Source of the DNA: a virus
Taxonomy: Duplodnaviria; Heunggongvirae; Uroviricota; Caudoviricetes
Direction: 5' to 3' (one strand)
Virus record (IMG/VR): IMGVR_UViG_2737471853_000007
Location: 1 to 17,015 of that record
DNA: 17,015 nucleotides
Below, in pieces: positions 1 through 17,015 of the stretch (the stretch's first letter is position 1; each line of letters opens with the position of its first letter). The notes under the pieces were generated by a model. That model made no database searches. It was given only the letters and a program-made list of their open reading frames with translations, and was not told where the DNA came from. The translations under genes and the position numbers were made by a program.

Positions 1-121
1 TATTATGCGGGATACTTACACGTCCATGTCTGATTTGAATAGACTGGTTCAGTACTTTTAATCTGGAAGTTTGTTATTTTTATTTGATTTGAAAAAGATG
101 CCATTGTAACCTCAACAATCC

Positions 122-760
122 TTGTTTCGAGTATTTATTATGATTGACTTCTTAAACCACATATTGCCTATATTATCTGCTATTGCATTCCCTATAGTTG
201 TGGTAGTAGTAACTCTTTATATAGTCTACAGAAGCGGAAGTACATCCATCATTGCTAATAAGATATGGGGGATATTCATTGGTGAGAAAAATTTCTTCAA
301 TGAAGAATTAGCATTAAAAGAAAAGGTTGAACATGATGTTGCTAAATTCAACTTTAAAGTAAATCTGAAAACCAGGAATCTCACTCAAATTGAACAATTT
401 TATAAATTTCTGGAAAAATTCGATCTGGATATAGATAACTTCAAAGGACTTCGTGACTGCTACTTGCCATCATTGCAGAAGGTCAAAAAAACATCTAAAA
501 GTGAAATATTTAATATTGGCCTGGTTGTCTTGTTAATAGGCGGTTTTTTGTTACCTATCTTCATTGGCGTGTTTATATTTAGAGACATTTCTACTTTCGA
601 CGGAGGGAAATTAGCAAATCTATTCTTTTATACGTTTTTGATTTCTGCCAGTACAGTTTTAAGTTTTAGTCAGTTACTTAGAAAGATTAAGTCAATCAGA
701 ACCCGTAAATTGATCTATAAAAAGAAATGCGAATATCTTGCAAACAGAAAGCCCATGTAG
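122..760 (+). CDS. Hypothetical membrane protein, about 3 predicted TM helices; candidate moron
   Basis: 212-aa ORF with hydrophobic stretches (ILPILSAIAFPIVVVVVTLYIVY; IGLVVLLIGGFLLPIFIGVFIF; LFFYTFLISASTVLSF) and a basic C-terminus. The track start is TTG at 122 with no clear SD; an in-frame ATG at 140 (MIDFLNH...) is an alternative start. Opposite strand to the structural operon and convergent on the tape measure gene. No recognisable family motif. Confidence 0.45.
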   Translation: MFRVFIMIDFLNHILPILSAIAFPIVVVVVTLYIVYRSGSTSIIANKIWGIFIGEKNFFNEELALKEKVEHDVAKFNFKVNLKTRNLTQIEQFYKFLEKFDLDIDNFKGLRDCYLPSLQKVKKTSKSEIFNIGLVVLLIGGFLLPIFIGVFIFRDISTFDGGKLANLFFYTFLISASTVLSFSQLLRKIKSIRTRKLIYKKKCEYLANRKPM

Positions 761-768
761 GGCTTTCT
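746..768. terminator. Putative bidirectional hairpin between convergent genes
   Basis: Perfect 9-bp inverted repeat AGAAAGCCC (746-754) / GGGCTTTCT (760-768) with a 5-nt loop, overlapping the stop of the + ORF and abutting the tape measure stop codon at 768-770. T-rich flank on the minus-strand side (TTTCTGTTTG). Confidence 0.45.
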
Positions 769-2978
769 TAAGTATTACGTCTCTGACTGCTTCTTACTGC
801 TTGTGTAACGCTGTTAGCATGCTTCTTCAACATTTCATTGAATTTCTTATCATCACCTGCAACGTCACCCTGAATGATTAAGGGAGCGTTAACGGTGATG
901 TCACCAGCAGTACTACCGCCTTTGTCCTGAGTATCGAGAAACTTAGTCAGCTTCTTGTTAGCTTCTGGCTGGACGACACGCTCACCGGCTTTCAGTACGA
1001 ATGATTTGTTATCGTACCCGGCAGGTAGCTCATCGACACCGCCGTGGAACTGCCCCGCATCAGCACCTTTTGCAGTACTGATAATGCTCAATCCAAGAGA
1101 GGCTACCTGTGCATAGTTCGCAAGGTTTTGAGGCCACGGCGTAGCAAGTGCCTGTGCAAGTGCGGATTGAATGCTTAGTACTGTCTGAGCTATCGTGATC
1201 CCACGTGAAACCATGAATGCCGCTTCGGCTGCACCCGACGATTCACCAAATGCGGCCACCATCGCCCCACTAAGGTTTTGTGCAGTATCTGAGAAGATTG
1301 TGAGTTGTTGCTGTGCATTCTGGTTACTGATATCAATGGCCTGAGCATTGTACTTTGCTGTTATCTGAGCCTTACGCTTTTCGTAGTCTTCATGACCTTT
1401 CAACAGTAAATCATTCTGTGCTAATTCAGCATTCATCGCGTCCTGATTATCATTCAGGCGTTGATCAGTATCATCATAAGCAAATGGATTACCACCATTG
1501 ATACGCTGATTTTGCTGTTGTGATAAGTACCCTTTCTGCTGATCATTTAGCAATCCAGAACTGATTAGAGAATTAGTATCTTTAAGACCTTGATTTGGAT
1601 CTGAATAGCCGACCATAGAATTAATTAGATCAGTACGTTGTTTAGCACCGGAAGTATTCGCATTCTTTAGCATTTCATCAGGATTAATACCGAGTACTTT
1701 AGCTGAATCAGTAATCGTTTTTAAAAGTGCCTTTTGCTGTCTGTCAAACTGCTGTAGGCGTACTTTAAAACCATCTTCCCCAACCTGAGCAAGAGCAGTT
1801 TCTAAATTACGTTGAGCCTGTAGCCGTTTTGCATCTGCCTGCTTTTGAGCTTGTTCTGCTTGCTTGTGTAACTGATCGGCTTTCTTCTGTGCATCTTCAC
1901 GCTGTTTGCCCTGATCTACCCAACCACCTTTAGGGGCTGTCACTGTAGCAATATCATTCTGAAAGTTGCTCACCAGACCTTCAAGATTCTTTTTAGCGTC
2001 GGCGTACTGGTTCCCCTTGCCGTTATCCATCGAGCCAGTATGAAGGGCTGCACCTTGATAGTTTAACGCCCCCGCCATGCGTAGCTTCTCCCAGATATCT
2101 AACATATCCTGTAGACTACCTTTGGATTCCTTTATACGTTGGTTAAGATCCTCAAATAATCCCGCCTCATGTGGCTTTTGATTGGCGGCATCATATACAC
2201 TGTTCATTGCATCAACTAAAGGTGAAAGGCCATCGGCGATAGTACCTTTAATATTAGTGGTTAGCTTAGTTAGATTCTTATCAAATTCCGCGTACTTTTC
2301 GGCTGCTTCATTAGTAACATCGGCGTTCTGTTGCTGGATATATGCAGTTGCATCTGCTTCATTATTGAACTGCTGTAAAGTACTAATCATATGAGATGAA
2401 TCACTTGCTAATGTTTCCATTACGTTGACAATTTCACCCTGAGATTTACCCGCATCACGCATAGCATAAAACGTATGAATAACGGCTTTCATACCGCCAT
2501 CAGTTTGTTTCAAGTACTTGTTATAGTCCTGTAGATTCAGGCCAAACTCTTTTAAATCATCAGACACGCCACCGCCAGCACGAAAGGCATCACCGAGTTT
2601 ATCTAAAGTATCCTTGTTAAAGTCTCCAAACTTATCCATTTCAAGACCAAGACCACTAAACGCCGATGATAGCTGTTGTAGCTGTACTACTGATAGACCA
2701 GTACTTTTACTGATTTCATTCATCTCGCGAACATACTCACGTGAAGACTGTACCAGTGCAGCAAGTCCACCAATACCAATAGCCGCAGCACCTGCAAGGC
2801 CAGTCATAGCAGTACTGAATCCGCCAGCCATCCCACTAAAGCGGCCTGTGAACTCTTCAACTACACCGCCAGCCTTACCACCAAATTCTTCTACTGCTTC
2901 AGTACCTTGCTGTAAAGCCCGCTGTAAGCCACCGGAATCACCGTCAATTTCTACACGGATTACATTATTCTTTGCCAT
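768..2978 (-). CDS. Phage tail tape measure protein
   Basis: 736-aa ORF directly downstream of the G/GT chaperone pair. Gly/Ala-rich hydrophobic N-terminal region (MAGGFSTAMTGLAGAAAIGIGGLAALV), long Q/A/K-rich low-complexity helical middle (QKKADQLHKQAEQAQKQADAKRLQAQRNLE), typical tape-measure composition and operon position. Confidence 0.8.
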   Translation of the reverse strand: MAKNNVIRVEIDGDSGGLQRALQQGTEAVEEFGGKAGGVVEEFTGRFSGMAGGFSTAMTGLAGAAAIGIGGLAALVQSSREYVREMNEISKSTGLSVVQLQQLSSAFSGLGLEMDKFGDFNKDTLDKLGDAFRAGGGVSDDLKEFGLNLQDYNKYLKQTDGGMKAVIHTFYAMRDAGKSQGEIVNVMETLASDSSHMISTLQQFNNEADATAYIQQQNADVTNEAAEKYAEFDKNLTKLTTNIKGTIADGLSPLVDAMNSVYDAANQKPHEAGLFEDLNQRIKESKGSLQDMLDIWEKLRMAGALNYQGAALHTGSMDNGKGNQYADAKKNLEGLVSNFQNDIATVTAPKGGWVDQGKQREDAQKKADQLHKQAEQAQKQADAKRLQAQRNLETALAQVGEDGFKVRLQQFDRQQKALLKTITDSAKVLGINPDEMLKNANTSGAKQRTDLINSMVGYSDPNQGLKDTNSLISSGLLNDQQKGYLSQQQNQRINGGNPFAYDDTDQRLNDNQDAMNAELAQNDLLLKGHEDYEKRKAQITAKYNAQAIDISNQNAQQQLTIFSDTAQNLSGAMVAAFGESSGAAEAAFMVSRGITIAQTVLSIQSALAQALATPWPQNLANYAQVASLGLSIISTAKGADAGQFHGGVDELPAGYDNKSFVLKAGERVVQPEANKKLTKFLDTQDKGGSTAGDITVNAPLIIQGDVAGDDKKFNEMLKKHANSVTQAVRSSQRRNT

Positions 2979-3674
2979 TCTTTTTCTTCCCTAAAACTTG
3001 AGTCTTAATTAACTCTCCTATTGATTTAATATCACTAGATTGTTTATCTTTTGATTTCTCTTTCCGTTCCTGTTCTTTTTCAGCAGTAGTTTTAGTACTG
3101 TCACCGAGTACATCCAGAAAATCAAAATCTTGTACTTTGATACTTTTCCTTGCTTCTGGTGTTATGTTCCCATTACTGATAGTAGTGTAATAACACTGGT
3201 ACGCATGTTTCATCATTTCAATCTGAGTACCGGATGGTTCAATAAAAGCATCGTAAATCATTAGCATATTGAGTACTTCAGGATCTAAGCTAAAGTACTC
3301 TTCTGGTGATAAGCCTCTTTTGTTAACCATCTTACAAAAGTACTTTAATTCGATATCACCCCTTACTTTTTTTCTACTTCATCCGTAGGATTTGAATCAT
3401 TTACGAGTTTGATAATTGCCGCGTATATTTCATTTTGAATGACAAAATCAATACTGTTTACATTAATGCGTCCATCAATATCTTCATCTGAAAAGATAGG
3501 ATCACCATTTTCATCTTTCGCACATAAGATTAGTGTTTGTGCAACATCAGTACATTTTGCAAAGTCTCTGCCATTTGGACGATGAATATAGATAGTTTCA
3601 CCTGCTACTTCGTAGGGTTGTAGTACTGGCTGTAGTTTCTTCATAAGCTGGTTTAAGTTCATTTGTTTCTCCAA
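2965..3674 (-). CDS. Tail assembly chaperone GT-like fusion product made by programmed -1 ribosomal frameshift (shift site at 3366-3372)
   Basis: The minus-strand mRNA at the end of the G ORF reads GAA AAA AAG TAA. The heptamer A AAA AAG (plus coordinates 3366-3372) is a classic -1 slippery site. The -1 frame is open from 3378 through the 121-aa ORF 2965-3330 (KK-VRGDIELKYFCK-MVNKRGLS...), which ends 14 bp inside the tape measure gene. Predicted fusion is about 236 aa. Confidence 0.7.
3363..3674 (-). CDS. Tail assembly chaperone (lambda gpG-like), zero-frame product
   Basis: 103-aa acidic ORF between the major tail protein and tape measure genes, ending in the slippery heptamer. Position and size match the conserved G/GT chaperone arrangement of long-tailed phages. 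Confidence 0.7.
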   Translation of the reverse strand: MEKQMNLNQLMKKLQPVLQPYEVAGETIYIHRPNGRDFAKCTDVAQTLILCAKDENGDPIFSDEDIDGRINVNSIDFVIQNEIYAAIIKLVNDSNPTDEVEKK

Positions 3675-3678
3675 TAAA

Positions 3679-3714
3679 AAAGGGAAAGTACAATACCTTC
3701 CCTTTATTTATTTT
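3679..3714 (-). terminator. Putative rho-independent terminator or attenuator downstream of the major tail protein gene
   Basis: Inverted repeat AAAGGGAA (3679-3686) / TTCCCTTT (3698-3705). On the minus-strand transcript the stem is followed by a U-run (TTTTTT then ATTGG). Lies in the 40-bp gap between the tail protein stop (3715) and the chaperone start (3674). Confidence 0.5.
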
Positions 3715-4179
3715 TTACTCACCAGTACCCGTAGTGATTAGACCTGAATCGATAGCAGCCCCATCTACAGCAAGTGTAAATGTCTTAGTTACTACTTCGT
3801 CTTTGTCACCACCGATAGTAGTACTTGAGACAAAGCACGTATAAACCACATAGAATCCGTTCTCTTTAGTAGCATCTTCAAAATAGCTTAGTTTGATTTG
3901 GCAACGCTTTTGATCATCTGCCAGTTGTTCTAATTTTTGGTGTACTGTGTTATCTGCAAGATAGTTAACCGCAAGTGAAATGTCAGGGATAGATTTAGTA
4001 CCCAATAGTTTACGGTCATATGCTGAGTTAAATGTTTTAACACTAATTACAGTACTTTCAAAACCAGAAGTAGTGAAGGTATTCACCTCTGGTACTTCTG
4101 CAAAATCAGTAGCAACGGTAGAACCCGCAGAACCTACCTCTACAGTAATATTAGCACCAGAAAAAATATCCATAGCCAT
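3715..4179 (-). CDS. Major tail (tube) protein, short form
   Basis: 154-aa ORF immediately upstream of the terminator and G/GT chaperones, the canonical position of the major tail protein. Strong SD (TATAAGGATATAAAAACT-ATG). Paralogous to the N-terminal 140 aa of the 946-aa ORF (shared MA(M)DIFSG and GDKD(E/Q)VVTK(T/S) motifs). Confidence 0.6.
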   Translation of the reverse strand: MAMDIFSGANITVEVGSAGSTVATDFAEVPEVNTFTTSGFESTVISVKTFNSAYDRKLLGTKSIPDISLAVNYLADNTVHQKLEQLADDQKRCQIKLSYFEDATKENGFYVVYTCFVSSTTIGGDKDEVVTKTFTLAVDGAAIDSGLITTGTGE

Positions 4180-4235
4180 AGTTTTTATATCCTTATATAA
4201 GTTTAATCGGGCAACGTCCTGTCACCCTTTTATAT

Positions 4236-7076
4236 TTATTTATTATCGATTAGTGATTGTACTAATACTTTCAAGTTTTCAATTTCAGTACTGAGATCAT
4301 CATTCATCTGTTTTAATGCTTTAATTGCGGCTAAACCATCTAACATCATTGGTGTTTCATCAAGATGGTACAGATCACCAACTTCTTTTACGTATTGTGG
4401 ATCTATATCCATAATCTGTTGTGAAACTACTCCACGGCGTGGTGTCTCGTCTTCATCAGATTTAAAAGTAAAGTTAACAAAGTCCATCCGAGAAATATTA
4501 TCAAGTGCAATATTGAGATCTAATGGTTCACCAATATCTTTGGCCCTTTCATCAGAGACAGCAGATGTAGTCAACTGTGCCCATGTTCCCCACGCCATAG
4601 CATTGGTTTGAACACGTGTATATATGCGATTGCTGGTGTCATAGAATCGCTGCTGATACCACTGGTTAGTAGTACCTGTGCCATTATAGTTCCCAGTGTT
4701 TAACCCTTGAGTTGCCTGAGTGAACAAAGACCCATATACGTTCGCAGCAGCACTCCCCGAAGGTGAGTTAGTCCATGAACCACCAACGGCACGCCATCCT
4801 TGAGCACCTATATTCATATCCGAACCGGAAGAATCGTATGATGTGCCATTAGGGGCAAGTCCTCCAGCAAGGCCAATGGGAGAACCATAGCCCGAAATTG
4901 GCGGTAGATATGCCCAACCCTGTCCAGTGACTGACCCAATCTTATCTCTGAAATAGAAAATAAGTCCCTTACCGGCTTCCTGGCTATTTTCAATTCTTAC
5001 CCGGCGACCTACCACATCATCACCACCACTAACATCTAAGTTGATTGCGGGCCAATCATCCCGCGATACCGTGAGTTGATTGCTGATCACTTGAGGTTGA
5101 TTGAACGTATTTGACCTGTCCAATGTCGGTACTTCATGCCACTGCCATTTACCACTGTTCAGTGATGGTTGTACGCCTCCAGCAAAGACACGATTACCAT
5201 CAGGCTGAACAAGCATTCCAGAATAAGACGGTGAACCATCATACTGTGATACAAAACCAGCACCGCCGAATGATGGAGGGGAATCAATAGTTGCTGTAGT
5301 CGTTCGAATGAACCCTTTCGGTGCATCCTTCATATCGGCAACATGGCGAGGATCTATTCCAAGCCCAACTTCTGATAGCGTCCTGTCAATTGAGTAAATT
5401 TGCTGTCCGTTCAACGTTGCTGCACTGGCTACTATTCCCAAAGTACCTTTGCCTGTTGCTGTTTCGCCACCCGATGCAAACAGACGTACATCAAAATCGT
5501 TACCAGTACCGGAACTATGCATATCAAGGAATGTCAGTACTGCCGTAGTACTACTACCCAGCTCAATACCCCTTGAAGTGGTTGAGTTGCTTCCAATAGC
5601 AATAGATCCGTTGAAGTTCTGCCCCCCATCCCATGTATTGGTAGCGTTGAGCAAAGGTACAGTACCGCCAGATGTACCAACGTTTACCGTCGCAGCCGTA
5701 CCAAGTCCAAGATTCGTTCTTGCCGCCGCAGCCGTGGTCGCTCCAGTACCGCCACTCGTTAGGGGTAATGCAGTAGAAAGGGTTAAGGTCGATAACGTCG
5801 CCTGACCGCCTGTGATAGCGACTGCGTTAGAGTTCTGCACCGCAAGGGAACCTAAACCGAGATTAGTACGGGAAGTGACAATATTATTAAGGTCTGCAAG
5901 ATTACTTGCGATCTTTAGCTGTGCGTCATTAGTAACGTTAGATAAACCAACATCGGCTTTAGTTACTGTCACATTGGATGATAATGCATGACCGTTTACT
6001 GTGATTGTTTTAGGAACCAAATCTGTATTAACATGAGTAGTTAATGTATTAATTGAATTATTAACCTCATCAATATCGCTATCAATTTGTTCTTTCGAAT
6101 ACACATCCAGATTAGTACGGGCAATTTCATTATCAGCGATATCGGCTAAATTACTGATAACTTTTAACTGAGCATCATTAGTGACATTTTCTAATTGAAT
6201 ATCTTGTTTTGTAAGTACTACATCGCTTGAAAGCTCATGACCATTAACGGTACGCTCGACGGGTACAGAACCGGTGTCAGTACTGGTTAATGTAATGTCT
6301 GCTGTTAGTGCTTTACCGTTGACGGTTCGCGTGAGAGGAACATAACGTGCGTCCATCTGTGTAGCCGTGTAGATACGAGTCCATGCCGTGGTGGCATTTT
6401 TTGCGAATAGGCTTAGTGTGCCTGTTTTTGTCATCGCAAATTCAGCAACGCTCGAACCGTCGACAAGCCCTATGCCCATCATATCGGCCCCAGCAGGATT
6501 ACCCTGTTGTGTTGACGGTATTTTGATAAAGCTGTTACCCGTTGGTGTGACTGGTGCGTACTGCGGTATACCAGTAGTGTTAGCACCTACGCCGTAATCC
6601 CCCTGATAGACAGGAAGAAGTGCAGCCATTGTCATTACACGGGCAACTACATCAGCAGGTGTAAAAGAATAGGATTTAGTAACTACCTGATCCTTATCCC
6701 CGGATAATTGAGTACCCGTAACGTAACCATTGACGATGGCATAAGTGATCTGACTTTCTTCTAAATCTAATTGATACTGAATAATGACCTGAAATACAGA
6801 TTGTGATTCAGCCATTTCATCTAAGAATTGGTGCGTAGGATCATCAGGTAAGTATGCAACCACAATATCAAATGGTTCTACTGATTTATCAGATAGTAGT
6901 ACTGTCTTGTACTCATTATCATAGGTTTCAAAATTATTTGTTTCTGACTGGATGGTTAGAGCAGGAAATTCAGTTACATTATTAATAGTAACATTGCCTA
7001 TGCCCTGTGGTGAACGGTTTCCAGTGTCCGTATTATATTGTAAAGTTAATCCCTTACCTGAAAAAATGTCGGCCAT
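4236..7076 (-). CDS. Tail fiber-like protein: N-terminal major-tail-protein-like domain, tandem fiber repeats, C-terminal intramolecular chaperone (peptidase S74-like) domain
   Basis: 946-aa ORF. Residues 1-140 are homologous to the 154-aa tail protein. The middle has tandem repeats (ERTVNGHELSSDVVLTKQDIQLENVTNDAQLKVISNLAD / TITVNGHALSSNVTVTKADVGLSNVTNDAQLKIASNLAD; RTNLGLG twice) and Gly/Ser/Thr-rich fiber-like sequence. The C-terminus (SAVSDERAKDIGEPLDLNIALDNISRMDFVNFTFKS...) matches the Ser-x4-Lys autoproteolytic chaperone module of tail fibers and endosialidases, followed by a coiled-coil tail. Confidence 0.8.
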   Translation of the reverse strand: MADIFSGKGLTLQYNTDTGNRSPQGIGNVTINNVTEFPALTIQSETNNFETYDNEYKTVLLSDKSVEPFDIVVAYLPDDPTHQFLDEMAESQSVFQVIIQYQLDLEESQITYAIVNGYVTGTQLSGDKDQVVTKSYSFTPADVVARVMTMAALLPVYQGDYGVGANTTGIPQYAPVTPTGNSFIKIPSTQQGNPAGADMMGIGLVDGSSVAEFAMTKTGTLSLFAKNATTAWTRIYTATQMDARYVPLTRTVNGKALTADITLTSTDTGSVPVERTVNGHELSSDVVLTKQDIQLENVTNDAQLKVISNLADIADNEIARTNLDVYSKEQIDSDIDEVNNSINTLTTHVNTDLVPKTITVNGHALSSNVTVTKADVGLSNVTNDAQLKIASNLADLNNIVTSRTNLGLGSLAVQNSNAVAITGGQATLSTLTLSTALPLTSGGTGATTAAAARTNLGLGTAATVNVGTSGGTVPLLNATNTWDGGQNFNGSIAIGSNSTTSRGIELGSSTTAVLTFLDMHSSGTGNDFDVRLFASGGETATGKGTLGIVASAATLNGQQIYSIDRTLSEVGLGIDPRHVADMKDAPKGFIRTTTATIDSPPSFGGAGFVSQYDGSPSYSGMLVQPDGNRVFAGGVQPSLNSGKWQWHEVPTLDRSNTFNQPQVISNQLTVSRDDWPAINLDVSGGDDVVGRRVRIENSQEAGKGLIFYFRDKIGSVTGQGWAYLPPISGYGSPIGLAGGLAPNGTSYDSSGSDMNIGAQGWRAVGGSWTNSPSGSAAANVYGSLFTQATQGLNTGNYNGTGTTNQWYQQRFYDTSNRIYTRVQTNAMAWGTWAQLTTSAVSDERAKDIGEPLDLNIALDNISRMDFVNFTFKSDEDETPRRGVVSQQIMDIDPQYVKEVGDLYHLDETPMMLDGLAAIKALKQMNDDLSTEIENLKVLVQSLIDNK
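5847..6335 (-). repeat. Intragenic tandem repeats (TVNG(K/H) fiber repeats) inside the tail fiber gene
   Basis: Three diverged copies are visible at DNA and protein level: the RTVNGKAL copy near 6314-6336, the ERTVNGHEL copy near 6241-6261 and the TITVNGHAL copy near 5991-6012. Each of the last two is followed by an NVTNDAQLK(V/I) block, and the region ends with RTNLGLGS at 5847-5870. Confidence 0.55.
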
Positions 7077-7093
7077 TTTATATCCTTATAGCG

Positions 7094-7486
7094 TTATCTT
7101 GTTTTCTCCGTAACTTGAATATTTATCGTGAATGATAAAGAAACCGAGCCAGTTATAGGGTCTGTTACGATATCGGATTGTTCATATGAGTAAGAGAGAA
7201 TGATTAAATCAGCATCCTTGAAAGCACGTGCTTTCTCATTATCAAAAGTACTGATAATCTGATCATAAGTAATTGACGGTGCAGTATTACCTGATTCTGG
7301 TTTTGGACTAATCAAGTACTGAATAGCAAAGTTACCTGCTTGTCTCTGCCCTCCAAAAGAAATTGAAGACAATGAGTAATCAAATGCTATCTGTTCAAAT
7401 ACATCTGCATCACGTGATACTGTTAGATTCTTAGTTGCGTTGATTAGTTGTTTCATTGTCTGGCGTACTTTCTGTACTAACATCAT
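7094..7486 (-). CDS. Hypothetical phage neck / tail-completion protein (position-based)
   Basis: The track ORF starts at 7564 and overlaps the upstream gene by 77 bp. An in-frame ATG-ATG at 7481-7486 lies 1 nt after the upstream stop (TAA at 7488-7490), giving a coupled about 130-aa product (MMLVQKVRQTMKQ...). No family motif recognised; the role is inferred only from its position between capsid and tail genes. Confidence 0.45.
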   Translation of the reverse strand: MMLVQKVRQTMKQLINATKNLTVSRDADVFEQIAFDYSLSSISFGGQRQAGNFAIQYLISPKPESGNTAPSITYDQIISTFDNEKARAFKDADLIILSYSYEQSDIVTDPITGSVSLSFTINIQVTEKTR

Positions 7487-7487
7487 A

Positions 7488-7811
7488 TTAGTAGTCCTCT
7501 GCAAATGAAGCACCAGCAGAAGTACGAAAGTAGCAATTAACCATACCTGACAGATCATCTTCAATATTATAAATTGTTTGGTTTACACCATCGATGATCA
7601 GTACTGTACCGATATCTATATCAGTATTAACTAAATCATCCTTTCTCATTGTTACGTATGTTTCTGTACTTTCGATAAATCCACCTGCCGCTTCAATAGA
7701 AACGGGAAGTACTTCTACAATTCCAGTAAAAGTACTTCCCGTAGAAGTTTGGATTAATTGACCGAAAGCATTTAGAAACGTATCTTGTTGACCGTTAGAA
7801 AATGCTCTCAT
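7488..7811 (-). CDS. Hypothetical head-tail connector / head completion protein (position-based)
   Basis: 107-aa ORF immediately downstream of the capsid gene (stop 7817, start 7811), tightly packed in the operon. No recognisable motif. Confidence 0.45.
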   Translation of the reverse strand: MRAFSNGQQDTFLNAFGQLIQTSTGSTFTGIVEVLPVSIEAAGGFIESTETYVTMRKDDLVNTDIDIGTVLIIDGVNQTIYNIEDDLSGMVNCYFRTSAGASFAEDY

Positions 7812-7816
7812 AGTTA

Positions 7817-11638
<3,822 letters not shown>

Positions 11639-11641
11639 TTA

Positions 11642-14009
<2,368 letters not shown>

Positions 14010-14023
14010 TTATTGAGATCACT

Positions 14024-14587
14024 ATGTCAGACCGCAACAATGATTTTTCTTTGCTGGTAAAGTTACTGAATAGCTTCCTAAAGAATGAAGATATAAAGAG
14101 GCGTCTGTATTCCTTCGTCAGTAATGAAACTAATGATTGGGAAAAATGGCTACAAATTGAATTTGAGCACTTCCTTAACAAAAAAAGAAAATATGAAGTT
14201 AAACGTGAAGTTACAGCTTTTCTTGACCCTAATAATTTCCCTGCAAGCAAGCTCTCAAAAATCGATATAATAATGAGAGAAAAAGATACCCTTTTTGAAG
14301 ACTATATCTTTATTGAGCTGAAATGTACTAAGCGTTCATCTGCCTTAAAAAGAGGATTGCAAGCAGACCATTTGAAACTCAACTCTATACAAGAATGTAA
14401 GTATCCGATGCGAAATTCTTTCTGTGTTGGTTTTCATTTATATTGCTCATCATCTGTAGTTGAAGAAATGGACAAGTATGTAACCGATACCCTTAAAGGA
14501 TCTTATGCAGTATTCAAATTATGCGAATGTCCGACAAACCGTCATTGCGATTGTGCGTTAAATGAAATAGGTGTTGTACTTTGCTAA
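14024..14587 (+). CDS. Hypothetical small protein with PD-(D/E)xK-like nuclease motif and C-terminal Cys cluster
   Basis: 187-aa ORF divergent from terS with only 38 bp between start codons. Candidate catalytic motif E (QIEFEH) ... D (SKIDIIM) ... ExK (IFIELKC) with restriction-endonuclease-like spacing. C-terminal CxC...HCDC cluster. No AGTACT hexamer, unlike the phage operon. Confidence 0.5.
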   Translation: MSDRNNDFSLLVKLLNSFLKNEDIKRRLYSFVSNETNDWEKWLQIEFEHFLNKKRKYEVKREVTAFLDPNNFPASKLSKIDIIMREKDTLFEDYIFIELKCTKRSSALKRGLQADHLKLNSIQECKYPMRNSFCVGFHLYCSSSVVEEMDKYVTDTLKGSYAVFKLCECPTNRHCDCALNEIGVVLC

Positions 14588-14676
14588 GTGCGGTGCGGGA
14601 AGCTATCTAAACTTCACACATAACTTAAAGAATCCGGTGCCGAAAACTCGCGTTCTAAGCTGGGCTGCCGGAGTAC

Positions 14677-14760
14677 CTTAATTAGTAATTTAACTTAATT
14701 AGCTTGCTTAAAAATACTTACATTCTATTTTACATTAGCATTATTACAATGTTATATTAA
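14677..14760 (+). promoter_or_regulatory. Putative promoter/operator region upstream of the DUF3800 gene
   Basis: 9-bp direct repeat CTTAATTAG at 14677-14685 and 14693-14701, immediately upstream of a -35-like TTGCTT (14704-14709) and a -10-like TATTTT about 16 bp downstream. The AT-rich context makes the exact promoter assignment uncertain. Confidence 0.3.
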
Positions 14761-14766
14761 TAGCAC

Positions 14767-15921
14767 ATGCACATTGTAGCTCATAAAGGAATGACCAAAT
14801 TGGTAAAGAATGTATATTTCGATGAATCAGGATTCACTGGTAATAACTTACTTTCAAAAGATCAGCCTTTTTTTAGTTACGCAGCAGTCGTGACTGATGA
14901 TGAGGAAAGTAAACAGTTTGTTGATTATATAATAAACAAGTACTCGATCGCAGCCGAAGAGCTAAAAGGTAGCACTCTCGTAAATAGCAAGAGATTTCAA
15001 CCAGCCGTAGATGAAATACTTAATCATTTCCGTGGTCGTATGCGTGTGGTTGTAAACGAAAAAAAATATGCCCTCTCAGGAAAATTCTTCGAATATATTT
15101 TTGAGCCAGTATTAGCAGCTAAAAGCTCAATTTTTTACAACCTTAAATTTCACCTATTCATCTCAAATATAATGTATTTTTCTTTAATAGCTAAGGATGA
15201 ATATTCAGAACTATTACATTCGCGATTTGAAGATTTTTCACGAGGTAAAATATTGGTTAATAGTTTTATCGAACCAGTTGTTGGTTCTAAAAATTCTGAA
15301 ATTATGATGGACATTCATGATTTCGCCAAGAATAACATCTCTATAATTGAAGAAGAATATGAAGGCCTTGAGGGTACTGGGATTGATAAGTGGTTATTAG
15401 ATTTGACAACGACTTCTCTTTATAATCTCCTGTGCGATATGAGTAGTAAGTTTGGTACATTGAGAGCTATATGCGACAGCTCAAAACCATTAATTACTCA
15501 TCAGGACTCATTCAATGAGATGATAGGCAATGATGAGATTGTGTTCGAGACTTTTCATGATAAAAAAATCCCGATCACATTTAAGCTATCTGAGCCAATG
15601 ATTCTTTCTGATTCTAAAGTCACGCATGGTATACAAATTGCGGATGTGGTAGCTGCGGCTAGCATTTATGTCCTTAACAAGAAAAAATCGAAAGAAAAAT
15701 ATCATTCTAAATGGCTAAATCATTTTGAAGATGAGATTTTTTATTGGCAGTGCTGTGTTGTTCCCACACCAGAAAACCTTGACCCTAAAAATGTTAACAA
15801 CCATTTAAATAGATATATTTTGCAAGAAATTGCAGAGCGAAGCAGAAACTCAACTCCTGTTTTAGATGATATTGAGAAGGATATAATAAGAATTTCCAGA
15901 ACATTAGCCATGCTACGTTGA
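14767..15921 (+). CDS. DUF3800-family protein (function unknown)
   Basis: 384-aa ORF with both signature motifs recalled for DUF3800: N-terminal DES (VYFDESGFTG) and C-terminal QxxD (THGIQIADVVAAA), within the family length range. The start is uncertain: the ATG at 14767 has no SD, and the alternatives are ATG at 14791 or in-frame TTG at 14800, 9 nt after AAAGGA. Confidence 0.75.
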   Translation: MHIVAHKGMTKLVKNVYFDESGFTGNNLLSKDQPFFSYAAVVTDDEESKQFVDYIINKYSIAAEELKGSTLVNSKRFQPAVDEILNHFRGRMRVVVNEKKYALSGKFFEYIFEPVLAAKSSIFYNLKFHLFISNIMYFSLIAKDEYSELLHSRFEDFSRGKILVNSFIEPVVGSKNSEIMMDIHDFAKNNISIIEEEYEGLEGTGIDKWLLDLTTTSLYNLLCDMSSKFGTLRAICDSSKPLITHQDSFNEMIGNDEIVFETFHDKKIPITFKLSEPMILSDSKVTHGIQIADVVAAASIYVLNKKKSKEKYHSKWLNHFEDEIFYWQCCVVPTPENLDPKNVNNHLNRYILQEIAERSRNSTPVLDDIEKDIIRISRTLAMLR

Positions 15922-15931
15922 AATATATATT

Positions 15932-15961
15932 CTCATGCTGTTTTATCAATAACAGCATGAG
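15932..15961. terminator. Putative bidirectional hairpin between convergent DUF3800 and lipoprotein genes
   Basis: 11-bp perfect inverted repeat CTCATGCTGTT (15932-15942) / AACAGCATGAG (15951-15961) with an 8-nt loop, 11 bp after the DUF3800 stop. Flanks are AT-rich on both sides. Confidence 0.5.
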
Positions 15962-16033
15962 GGTATTATATATTATTTAATTTTTCATCATGCCACATAC
16001 ACTTAATAATTCTATCTCTTTGATTTTTGTTTA

Positions 16034-16306
16034 TTATCTATATTGATGCATTTTTTTAATTCTTTCCTCTCGTATATGGCATGTAGTACTGCCATTGTCC
16101 ACCTGGTAAATCGGATTGTAGGTGCGGCCACAATCACTCTGGAACTGAGGCCGGTAGTACTTCACCCCGTTTCGTGTGCCAGCGTCGAACAGTACTATTG
16201 TAGCCTTGTTATCAACGTTGCCGACAAAGGCTTTATCCATGAATGAGTGATGTACGCTGCCGCAGCCTGTGAGCAGTACTACCAACATGACGATTAGTAT
16301 TTTCAT
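16034..16306 (-). CDS. Small lipoprotein (signal peptide with lipobox LTGC)
   Basis: The track ORF starts at 16342, but the internal ATG at 16306 gives MKILIVMLVVLLTGCGS..., a classic lipoprotein signal peptide with lipobox. SD AGGGA lies about 9 nt upstream, and the start is 10 bp after the upstream gene stop (TAG at 16317-16319). Mature part is about 70 aa with two further Cys. Confidence 0.6.
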   Translation of the reverse strand: MKILIVMLVVLLTGCGSVHHSFMDKAFVGNVDNKATIVLFDAGTRNGVKYYRPQFQSDCGRTYNPIYQVDNGSTTCHIREERIKKMHQYR

Positions 16307-16316
16307 TGTTATATCC

Positions 16317-16826
16317 CTATAGAAGTTGTTCGCATTGTTCAAAGCGGATTGGCCTGTACTCTCCCTGTACTGCCCATACCCCCGACTCTCGTAAAATCCT
16401 GTGATTTCGATTGCTGCTGACTTGTACGATCACCTTGTCGCAGTACTGCATGATGTTATTGATGAGTACCGGGAAGATCAGCCGCTCTATGTGTTCTTCA
16501 GTGAACCGTCTATTTAGTCGAACTAAGTCGTAACCGTCCGTTAGCAGTGGTTCAGCAGCCATGTACCGTATGAATGGTAGATCTTCATAGCGTGTACCTG
16601 TGCCAGTACTGAGCACGCACAACAGCCCCTTTTCTTTGAACCATGCGGCTTTACCCTGAATCATTCTTAACTGGTTCTGATAGACCACGTGACGGATATA
16701 TTCACTTTCTTTTCCTGCCCCCATCAGTACCTGGCAACCGTTTATCAGTACACGGGTTTCCAGCTCTACGCCGAGTAACATACCGTCCAATGAAGTGATC
16801 GGAATTGCCCAATGTTCGAGTTTCAT
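16317..16826 (-). CDS. Hypothetical protein with degenerate EAL-like (YdiV-like) features
   Basis: 169-aa ORF. LLGVELETRVL resembles the EAL signature region (E. coli YdiV: LVGVELITHF, as recalled), LSTGTGTRYEDL resembles the DDFGTGYSS region, and C-terminal VWAVQGEY resembles the QGY(LF) motif. It is shorter than a full EAL domain, so the assignment is weak. Confidence 0.35.
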   Translation of the reverse strand: MKLEHWAIPITSLDGMLLGVELETRVLINGCQVLMGAGKESEYIRHVVYQNQLRMIQGKAAWFKEKGLLCVLSTGTGTRYEDLPFIRYMAAEPLLTDGYDLVRLNRRFTEEHIERLIFPVLINNIMQYCDKVIVQVSSNRNHRILRESGVWAVQGEYRPIRFEQCEQLL

Positions 16827-16950
16827 GTTGATCTCTCAGTTGTCATAACTGATTGATAATTGATCATTTTTAACCATTGATCAAATTAAAATGATCGATA
16901 ATTACATTTCTACCGTTTTTAGTGGTAAGTATTTTGATGGCTGGATCTGT
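16827..16950 (-). promoter_or_regulatory. GATC-rich upstream region with repeated TTGATCA-like motifs
   Basis: Five GATC sites in about 120 bp (16830-16833, 16862-16865, 16879-16882, 16893-16896, 16944-16947), embedded in repeated ATTGAT(C)A motifs (GATTGATAATTGATCATTTTTAACCATTGATCAAATTAAAATGATCGATAATT) directly upstream of the start codon at 16826. Confidence 0.3.
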
Positions 16951-17015
16951 GCGAAATGTGATGCAATACTGTATGGATAACCAGTATTAATGTAGTGTAA
17001 ATAGACCCGTTTTAG

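Follow-up and report, generated by a model that had tools for sequence, protein, structure and literature searches.

Gene 15 of phage HK97, the founding moron, lies in the tail operon beside the tape measure protein (TMP) gene, and its product gp15 blocks genome injection without touching the receptor; morons at large have diverse host-directed roles (PMC3594210). SieA of phage P22 blocks injection at the inner membrane, and phages that are otherwise related encode SieA types whose sequences share less than 30% identity (PMC10883804). SNIPE, a membrane-bound nuclease, acts where the siphophage TMP brings DNA across the inner membrane, and is an instance of a cytoplasm-facing domain compatible with defence at the entry step (PMC13190303). 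In this work, we analysed a stretch of 17,015 nucleotides (nt) of Caudoviricetes DNA (IMG/VR record IMGVR_UViG_2737471853_000007, positions 1 to 17,015; hereafter, the window), focusing on an open reading frame (ORF) near its left end that encodes a predicted membrane protein of family DUF6216 and converges on the TMP gene.

Our results indicate with high confidence that lambda-like-head siphophage prophages of Enterobacteriaceae have a variable insertion slot at the junction between the TMP gene and the gene for the distal tail protein (Dit), and that this ORF is its cargo; the hosts named by the sources include E. coli, Scandinavium, Kosakonia and 'Enterobacteriaceae bacterium ENNIH3'. Regarding its function, we tentatively prefer an entry-level exclusion at the inner membrane that would protect the lysogen, by analogy with the systems mentioned above. 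The slot and its borders are made up of the following features of the window:

1-20, no strand assigned: outer terminal 20 nt of an IS3-family insertion sequence (IS); its constant inner flank encodes a transposase, and it matches no relative
21-104, minus strand: first 28 codons of the Dit gene (start codon 104-102), the rest lying beyond the IS and the window edge
110-113, minus strand: Shine-Dalgarno (SD) sequence GAGG of Dit, 5 nt upstream of the Dit ATG, as read from the sequence
131-138, minus strand: ATAAATAC motif, the Dit-side border of the slot, placed 26 nt before the Dit ATG and separated from the cargo ATG by 1 nt; the sole copy in the window
140-760, plus strand: cargo gene, a short-form DUF6216 membrane protein (Pfam PF19723, dN/dS, hydropathy, charge and AlphaFold, AF2)
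746-768, no strand assigned: hairpin common to the TMP and cargo genes, the TMP-side border of the slot, AGAAAGCCC / ATGTA / GGGCTTTCT, with a 9-bp stem
768-2978, minus strand: TMP gene, 736 amino acids (aa), phrog_13674 'tail length tape measure protein', E = 8.2e-87

The occupancy of this junction was surveyed in IMG/VR by a search anchored on Dit, because a search anchored on the ORF finds occupied sites only. Eighty loci were retrieved, 79 of them scorable; many are near-duplicates, and the counts refer to contigs and not to independent events. The junction was empty in 62 of the 79 (gap of 0-139 nt) and occupied in 17 (insert of 583-896 nt), with the following contents:

short DUF6216 insert: 4 loci (L030, L041, L059, L070)
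long DUF6216 insert (270 aa, E = 2e-50): 1 locus (L103)
insert encoding a ~190-aa protein with one N-terminal hydrophobic segment: 8 loci (L031-34, L036-38, L040; ~3424-4017, minus strand)
insert encoding a DUF726 alpha/beta-hydrolase-like protein of 260-271 aa with a GHSLG motif: 3 loci (L035, L039, L042; ~3144-3956, minus strand)
IS1 insert: 1 locus (L058)

All the protein cargoes are encoded on the strand opposite to the tail genes, and the ~190-aa one gave no Pfam or PADLOC match. The 13 loci with the closest Dit (76-97% identity) are all occupied, as are 4 of the other 66. Base composition sets the cargo apart as well, the ORF having a GC content of 32.2% against 44.2% for the TMP gene and 39.2% for the whole window; cargoes of the slot, the other kinds included, show 30-37% versus 40-45% on the TMP side. 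The first-pass annotation of this DNA had proposed a moron inserted between tail genes, and the survey bears this out: a junction that is mostly empty otherwise receives at least four unrelated kinds of cargo, or IS1, and two of the traits that define morons, presence or absence at the same place and deviating base composition (PMC3594210), are found here. The definition further calls for a terminator and a promoter of the gene's own and for expression from the repressed prophage.

These data also bear on a lytic-cycle function, with the protein serving the phage itself as a holin or antiholin, as an aid to injection or in tail assembly. Its small size, its several membrane passes and its location within the tail module speak for such a role, but the gene is absent in the 62 empty junctions and replaced by unrelated proteins in others, it lies on the strand opposite to the late genes and behind a terminator, and no holin family was matched in Pfam or PHROGs. 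Furthermore, a lysis cluster (a lysozyme and a weak match to a holin with three transmembrane (TM) segments) is located 6-8 kb from the ORF. We regard a lytic-cycle function as very improbable, and a holin or lysis role was rejected on the absence, strand, distant lysis cluster and lack of a holin-family match.

Empty junctions display a constant order, namely TMP stop, GC-rich hairpin followed by a T run, ATAAATAC, SD sequence and Dit. The hairpin with its T run is present in most of them, the shortest gaps (L060, L063, L065, L066) being those that lack it, and the stems differ between sub-lineages yet remain complementary. In occupied junctions the cargo is found exactly between the hairpin and the ATAAATA motif. 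ATAAATAC is situated ~20-27 nt upstream of the Dit ATG in almost all junctions, empty and occupied; a few loci carry ATAAATA plus another base, and no clear copy was seen in L051, L065 and L103. A second copy in L001 (3401-3408, minus strand) lies ~55 nt upstream of a GIY-YIG gene cluster. The motif resembles the T4 late promoter TATAAATA, and is a candidate late promoter, or a candidate regulatory site of another kind, for the distal tail genes. We infer that the slot separates two units of late transcription, so that an antisense insert need not disturb the expression of the tail genes.

The TMP-side border was examined at higher resolution. As first annotated, the ORF on the plus strand converges on the TMP gene, the stop codons (TAG at 758-760 for the ORF, 768-770 for TMP) leaving 7 nt between them, and the two genes share the hairpin at 746-768, whose calculated folding energy is -15.2 kcal/mol on the plus strand (z = -2.7) and -16.3 kcal/mol on the minus strand (z = -3.5). 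The terminator scan made no call at this hairpin because the maximal stem takes in the T run; with AGCCC/GGGCT as the core stem, the tail is TTCTGTTT when read on the strand of TMP and TTCTTAAG when read on that of the ORF. The TMP strand shows what is expected of a terminator, with core stem AGCCC/GGGCU followed by UUCUGUUU directly after the stop. On the ORF strand the T run (TTCTTAAG) is weak and the scan gave no terminator call; the hairpin overlaps the ORF stop there and has a favourable energy. In empty junctions elsewhere, stems are kept by compensatory change (GCCAGC/GCTGGC, GGGGC/GCCCC, CCCGGT/ACCGGG). Judged from these sequences, the hairpin appears to be the ancestral post-TMP terminator, now serving both directions. 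The final four codons of the cargo (Lys-Pro-Met-stop) and part of the preceding Arg codon fall within it, an overlap which probably explains the conserved C-terminal K-P of most short forms. In L002, L005 and L008, contigs otherwise ~99.95% identical, the TMP is called as two ORFs (639 + 107 aa) and not as one of 736 aa, which suggests a frameshift near the 3' end, whether genuine or due to faulty sequencing.

Comparison of near-identical phages further reveals that the contents of the slot are exchanged. With respect to L014, the flanking DNA is 98-100% identical and positions 140-745 only ~70%, with breaks at the ORF ends; at the protein level, TMP and Dit are 99% identical and DUF6216 70%. 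Against L026, TMP and Dit are 99% and the tail tube protein 100% identical, and DUF6216 43%; against L031, TMP (99%), Dit (97%) and a 207-aa tail protein (100%) are preserved and the cargo is unrelated. Short forms with identities as low as 26-30% (P0014, L029) are still in the TMP-Dit slot. The ORF thus appears to behave as an exchangeable accessory cassette, and the differing contents of phages that are otherwise 97-100% identical constitute natural allele-swap material for addressing specificity.

The ORF itself is a genuine gene. Two starts are available, TTG 122, giving 212 aa (122-760, plus strand), and ATG 140, giving 206 aa; the latter is the start aligned in all homologues, and NCBI also uses it for the identical protein, named 'DUF6216 family protein [Escherichia coli]'. 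An open frame of 216 codons was reached in 0 of 2000 shuffles of 105-767, the longest shuffled frame being 133 codons. Orthologue pairs show a ratio of nonsynonymous to synonymous substitution rates (dN/dS) of 0.05-0.11, and therefore the ORF is a translated gene under purifying selection. At least 24 contigs, the longest of 38.5 kb, encode an identical copy of its protein, and phage tail genes are found on both sides of the ORF in more than 30 contigs from several genera. As for expression signals, no SD sequence was visible upstream of ATG 140, and the single sigma-70-like match upstream of the ORF (112-141) overlaps the start codon, the distance from the Dit ATG to the cargo ATG being 35 nt.

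A further compositional feature distinguishes the cargo from the phage core. The hexamer AGTACT occurs 57 times in the window (e.g., 909-914, 1074-1079) against ~5 expected, distributed 27/7/21 by reading frame plus 2 intergenic copies; since it is found in all three frames, it is a DNA-level signal and not a codon effect, and a phage function that binds or modifies DNA could act on it. Nearly all phages of the lineage, down to ~50% Dit identity, carry 3-4.7 copies per kb; the density is ~0 in L051, L064, L067-69, L071 and L083, and 0-0.3 per kb in unrelated loci. No copy lies between positions 57 and 908, in keeping with the initial description of the ORF as free of AGTACT. For the 663-nt cassette alone this is weak (0 versus 2.5 expected, P(0) = 0.086), and all plus-strand accessory DNA together holds 1 copy versus 10 expected (P ~5e-4). 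Low GC and lack of AGTACT, both unlike the phage core, would suit a host gene lying beyond the prophage, or a chance open frame in the untranslated spacer that follows TMP; however, the tail genes on both sides in the more than 30 contigs, the dN/dS values, a Pfam match above threshold and the shuffling result refute such an origin, to which we assign practically no probability.

The left edge of the window is explained by an insertion sequence. The translation of 21-104 on the minus strand, MASFSNQIKITNFQIKSTEPVYSNQTWT, corresponds to the first 28 residues of a 185-aa protein of L001-L008, which in L001 matches phrog_1302 'distal tail protein' (E = 2.3e-15), and AGGAG or GAGG is found at the place equivalent to its SD sequence in all relatives. 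Positions 21-10760 of the window are 100% identical to L007 (NNXO01000058.1), and positions 1-20 match no relative. Metagenome contigs with the 20-mer TATTATGCGGGATACTTACA agree on its inner side and differ from one another on its outer side; the constant side encodes an HTH_Tnp_1 transposase (E = 3e-28), which 722 complete E. coli genomes list under the name 'IS3 family transposase'. A group II intron end was also considered for the 20-mer, but an Rfam scan of the IS-bearing contigs found none, leaving the IS end. An IS3-family element therefore interrupts Dit at 20/21, after codon 28, in this source only. The distal tail genes were not lost from the phage lineage, and in this copy they would lie beyond the IS unless it marks a deletion; the exact 28-mer of the left-edge junction was not found in viral or metagenome contigs, and this prophage copy is probably tail-defective. 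In identical and related contigs, the following genes are found to the left, in this order:

left of the window, minus strand: Dit, 185 aa (phrog_1302)
next after Dit, minus strand: tail protein, 207 aa (phrog_2048)
after the 207-aa protein, minus strand: DUF6950 protein, 133 aa (in identical contigs)
after DUF6950, minus strand: gpJ-like central fibre or tip, 1067 aa (Phage_Tail_Tip, phrog_31)

Further left of the gpJ-like gene there are small ORFs, a lysozyme and a GIY-YIG protein. The first-pass annotation had noted that distal tail genes were not seen in the window and suggested that sequence to the left of position 1 be examined: Dit, two more tail genes and the gpJ-like tip are indeed located there, on the minus strand, in identical contigs. 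The full genes lie outside as it stated, although the first 28 Dit codons had been overlooked at 21-104. Its alternative proposal, a tail module truncated here, is wrong for the lineage, as relatives continue with Dit, and true of this source by way of the IS in Dit. It had also raised the prospect of a host gene beyond a prophage end within 1-768. This prospect is dismissed: in Kosakonia cowanii, whose chromosome shows the same gene order, host HAD-hydrolase genes begin only ~8-9 kb further left, past the lysis genes, placing the prophage end ~8 kb away from that interval.

Regarding the protein, hydropathy profiles (Kyte-Doolittle, 19-mer) display peaks of 2.78 at residues 11-29, 2.91 at 128-146 and a borderline 1.58 at 158-176, and the AF2 model is all-helical (mean predicted local distance difference test score, pLDDT, 75.5), with long helices across all three hydrophobic segments. 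The three TM segments first announced are therefore a reasonable call, two being strong and the third weaker and borderline, though modelled as a helix. The charge distribution (11 K+R versus 1 D+E in the C-tail) favours an outer N-terminus by the positive-inside rule. The predicted layout is an N-terminus out, TM1 at 11-29, a cytoplasmic region at ~31-122 and TM2 at 128-146, followed by what would be a short outer loop (148-158), TM3 at ~158-180 and a basic C-tail inside.

A homology search, which the initial annotation had advised together with a topology prediction, assigned the protein to Pfam DUF6216 (PF19723), with 77.5 bits versus a gathering threshold of 27.3 (E = 1.3e-21). The match spans profile positions 8-140 of 270 only, the full-length ~270-aa architecture being absent, and the family alignment has a gap of ~70-90 columns between TM2 and TM3 in all short forms; therefore, the window protein belongs to a short subfamily of DUF6216. 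An exhaustive profile search of 1.84 billion representatives returned only 100 clusters at E <= 1e-3, of which ~10 are short forms (~200 aa) matched over their full length, and the rest are long forms of 265-305 aa matching over the N-terminal 140 residues. Short and long forms have in common a module formed by TM1 and the helical cytoplasmic domain, with the motif RSGS..NK(I/L)W..F.GEK.F ... D..KFN, as well as the layout of TM2 ... TM3 plus basic tail. D66 and N71 are the only residues invariant across the family, G48, F70 and F87 being nearly so. Long forms have ~90 more residues between TM2 and TM3, including two invariant cysteines, C194 and C219, and this segment would be periplasmic by the predicted topology. 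Among short forms, the cytoplasmic domain varies least (entropy 1.49) and TM2-loop-TM3 most (2.0-2.3). In the short-form allele of L070 (3306-3995, minus strand) the C-terminus is a (TPP)n repeat, ...PPTPPTPPTPPTPPTPPTP, which replaces the basic tail.

Long forms were located in other contexts. In P2-like contigs the gene is placed between gpS and baseplate W/J (L110, L111), or between a tail-fibre assembly protein and the sheath (L114, 3399-5261), in the latter case behind a Tlde1-domain (toxin-type) gene and a 97-aa ORF. In the Q-encoding prophage contigs L113 and L023 it adjoins the Q antiterminator gene, and in L023 it is next to GmrSD-, Eco57I- and AAA_15-type genes; in L025 it lies at most ~6 kb from a SMODS/SLATT pair. 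DUF6216 recurs as cargo in three different temperate-phage architectures, and a candidate function is put forward here for this uncharacterised Pfam family.

Searches for characterised relatives were negative. Known superinfection-exclusion families (HK97 gp15/YebO, P22 SieA/SieB, T4 Imm, Cor, Llp and others) were compared by family libraries, where Pfam gave DUF6216 only (E <= 0.01) and PHROGs no family. PADLOC-DB 2.0.0 yielded no family for the window protein and, for a long form, a chance-level Cas7c match (E = 0.008); NCBIfam had no match for the ORF, and the fold comparison of its protein gave no informative one. The phage lineage has no cultured representative in the collections searched: neither deposited phages nor complete E. 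coli genomes gave a megablast match to window positions 1-3000, and tblastn of deposited phages with the short form, a long form and the 207-aa tail protein found no DUF6216 and one 25% match to the tail protein. A scan of species-representative genomes returned a single locus, in Scandinavium lactucae, and an E. coli search with a long-form locus returned none. In the literature, 'DUF6216' led to one relevant text, a preprint (bioRxiv 10.64898/2026.09.05.749240, 'H-NS silences antiviral immunity through 3D chromatin compaction'), with the words '...and DUF6216 gene'; this mention may bear on function, and the text may hold functional data.

With the integration of these findings, we propose the following course of events. 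Ancestrally, the TMP gene would have ended in a terminator hairpin and the distal tail genes would have restarted behind ATAAATAC, leaving a transcriptionally neutral gap into which cargo could be inserted antisense, reusing the TMP hairpin as its own terminator; exchange of cargo would then proceed by recombination at the hairpin and ATAAATAC borders. The product would be a three-pass inner-membrane protein with almost nothing in the periplasm, a conserved cytoplasmic domain of ~90 residues and a tail, also cytoplasmic, that is strongly basic. Expressed while the prophage is repressed, it would protect the lysogen by hindering the genome entry of superinfecting phages at the inner membrane, in the manner of HK97 gp15 and P22 SieA. 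Target specificity may reside in the fast-evolving TM2-loop-TM3, where long forms have their ~90-residue two-cysteine periplasmic domain, and the common activity in the conserved cytoplasmic domain.

Several observations weigh against an entry block. Neither the promoter scan nor reading of the sequence gave a convincing promoter or SD sequence for the ORF, and expression in the lysogen is an assumption. No homology or fold link to any characterised protein emerged from Pfam, PHROGs, PADLOC or the fold search. The DUF6216 alleles do not co-vary with the adjacent TMP, and linkage to TMP therefore gives no functional clue; a coupling between DUF6216 allele and TMP variant, which was considered, is contradicted by the identity comparisons. 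One long-form homologue (L021, Rahnella chromosome) stands alone among metabolic genes. Finally, the most conserved part of the protein is cytoplasmic, and a sensor or effector that faces the cytoplasm would account for this no less well than a passive block of entry.

This last point leads to an abortive-infection or membrane effector, in which the cytoplasmic domain would sense an infection cue and the TM helices would permeabilise or depolarise the inner membrane, so that the infected lysogen dies or arrests. Conservation of the cytoplasmic domain, the single-gene membrane format, and the long forms found in or beside defence-type clusters (GmrSD-, Eco57I-, AAA_15-type) or ~6 kb from SMODS/SLATT are in its favour, but no similarity to known Abi or TM effectors was detected in PADLOC or Pfam and the 663-nt cassette includes no partner sensor gene; we consider it unlikely, while the data do not discriminate it from entry blocking. 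Slightly less likely still, in our view, is a lysogenic conversion devoid of phage defence, such as envelope-stress tolerance, toxin or colicin immunity, or an effect on a host transporter. Near-isogenic phages differ extremely in their alleles, a pattern more typical of genes in an arms race, and the other cargoes of the slot hint at no common physiological role, despite the varied host-directed roles of morons (PMC3594210), the Tlde1-domain gene adjoining DUF6216 in one P2-like contig, and the homologue among metabolic genes.

Returning to exclusion at the membrane, a broader and more speculative possibility is that DUF6216 may constitute an undescribed family of single-gene, prophage-borne inner-membrane anti-phage proteins. 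These would combine a conserved cytoplasmic module with an exchangeable outward part (a minimal loop in short forms, a disulfide-bonded periplasmic domain in long forms), and would have spread as cargo in neutral terminator-promoter gaps within structural operons of unrelated temperate phages, the TMP-Dit gap being a new hotspot. If so, the sites would be the TMP-Dit gap here, two gaps of P2-like phages and, in other prophages, the surroundings of the Q gene, and the TMP-Dit gap could be mined for further exclusion or defence genes, including those of the ~190-aa and DUF726 proteins. Should the anti-phage role hold, a new single-gene membrane exclusion or defence family would be gained along with the hotspot; should it fail, the slot would still be a clean example of how accessory genes are housed without disturbing late transcription. 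In either case, it is precisely delimited, from hairpin to ATAAATAC, and holds two further, uncharacterised cargo families.

The remaining genes of the window comprise a contiguous virion module on the minus strand, together with ORFs to the right of the small terminase gene:

13437-13985, minus strand: small terminase (weak Nu1 match)
11642-13531, minus strand: lambda-type large terminase (GpA_ATPase/GpA_nuclease)
11099-11629, minus strand: 176-aa ORF
9591-11099, minus strand: lambda-family portal
7817-9643, minus strand: prohead protease (Peptidase_S78) and major capsid protein (Phage_capsid) in a single 608-aa ORF
7488-7811 and 7094-7564, minus strand: two head-tail ORFs
4236-7076, minus strand: 946-aa protein with a tail-tube-like N-terminus, then tail fibre and a C-terminal Peptidase_S74 chaperone domain
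3715-4179, minus strand: tail tube protein, 154 aa
3363-3674, minus strand: tail assembly chaperone
2965-3330, minus strand: 121-aa ORF
14024-14587, plus strand: 187-aa ORF, no family match
14767-15921, plus strand: 384-aa DUF3800 / phrog_12991 protein
16317-16826, minus strand: 169-aa ORF with a weak match to the C-terminal end of the c-di-GMP phosphodiesterase model NF008617 (E = 7e-6, far below cutoff)

The N-terminal domain of the 946-aa protein is paralogous to the 154-aa tail tube protein, both being phrog_158, and it is unusual for a fusion of tube and fibre to be encoded immediately upstream of the tube gene. Another accessory region of low GC, on the plus strand and with one AGTACT only, adjoins the small terminase gene (13986-16033), and the 16317-16826 ORF is situated in a stretch of 43-47% GC with AGTACT sites.

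Among the known systems, HK97 gene 15 is likewise an add-on next to TMP in a siphophage tail operon that encodes a small inner-membrane protein and has a GC content unlike that of its neighbours. The two differ in position, HK97 gp15 being encoded upstream of TMP (assembly chaperone-TMP) and the window gene downstream (TMP-Dit) and on the opposite strand. The window protein, whose exclusion function is a prediction, is also larger, having three TM segments along with its cytoplasmic domain of ~90 residues, and it has no YebO-type or other Pfam or PHROG link besides DUF6216. Similarly to P22 SieA, it is a prophage-encoded inner-membrane protein, and the divergence of SieA types parallels the 26-92% spread of DUF6216 alleles in one slot; in contrast, no homology was detected (Pfam, PHROGs), sieA lies outside the tail module, and the SieA target is the ejection-protein conduit of a podovirus.

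SNIPE and the window protein both have a predicted outer N-terminus and cytoplasmic functional domains, although DUF6216 lacks a recognisable catalytic domain (only D66 and N71 being invariant) and no homology between them was found. The accessory positions of P2-like phages (S-V, G-FI), which house the long DUF6216 in L110, L111 and L114, place cargo between structural transcription units, as here; they differ in belonging to a myovirus, in the slot used and in holding the long form with a predicted periplasmic two-cysteine domain, the window form being short. P2 itself presumably carries orf30 and Z/fun at the S-V and G-FI positions, and P2 fun(Z) blocks T5. Taken together, a tail-operon moron is of a known kind, with HK97 gp15 as the archetype, and what sets this member apart is the DUF6216 family, the antisense TMP-Dit slot and the phage lineage that carries them.

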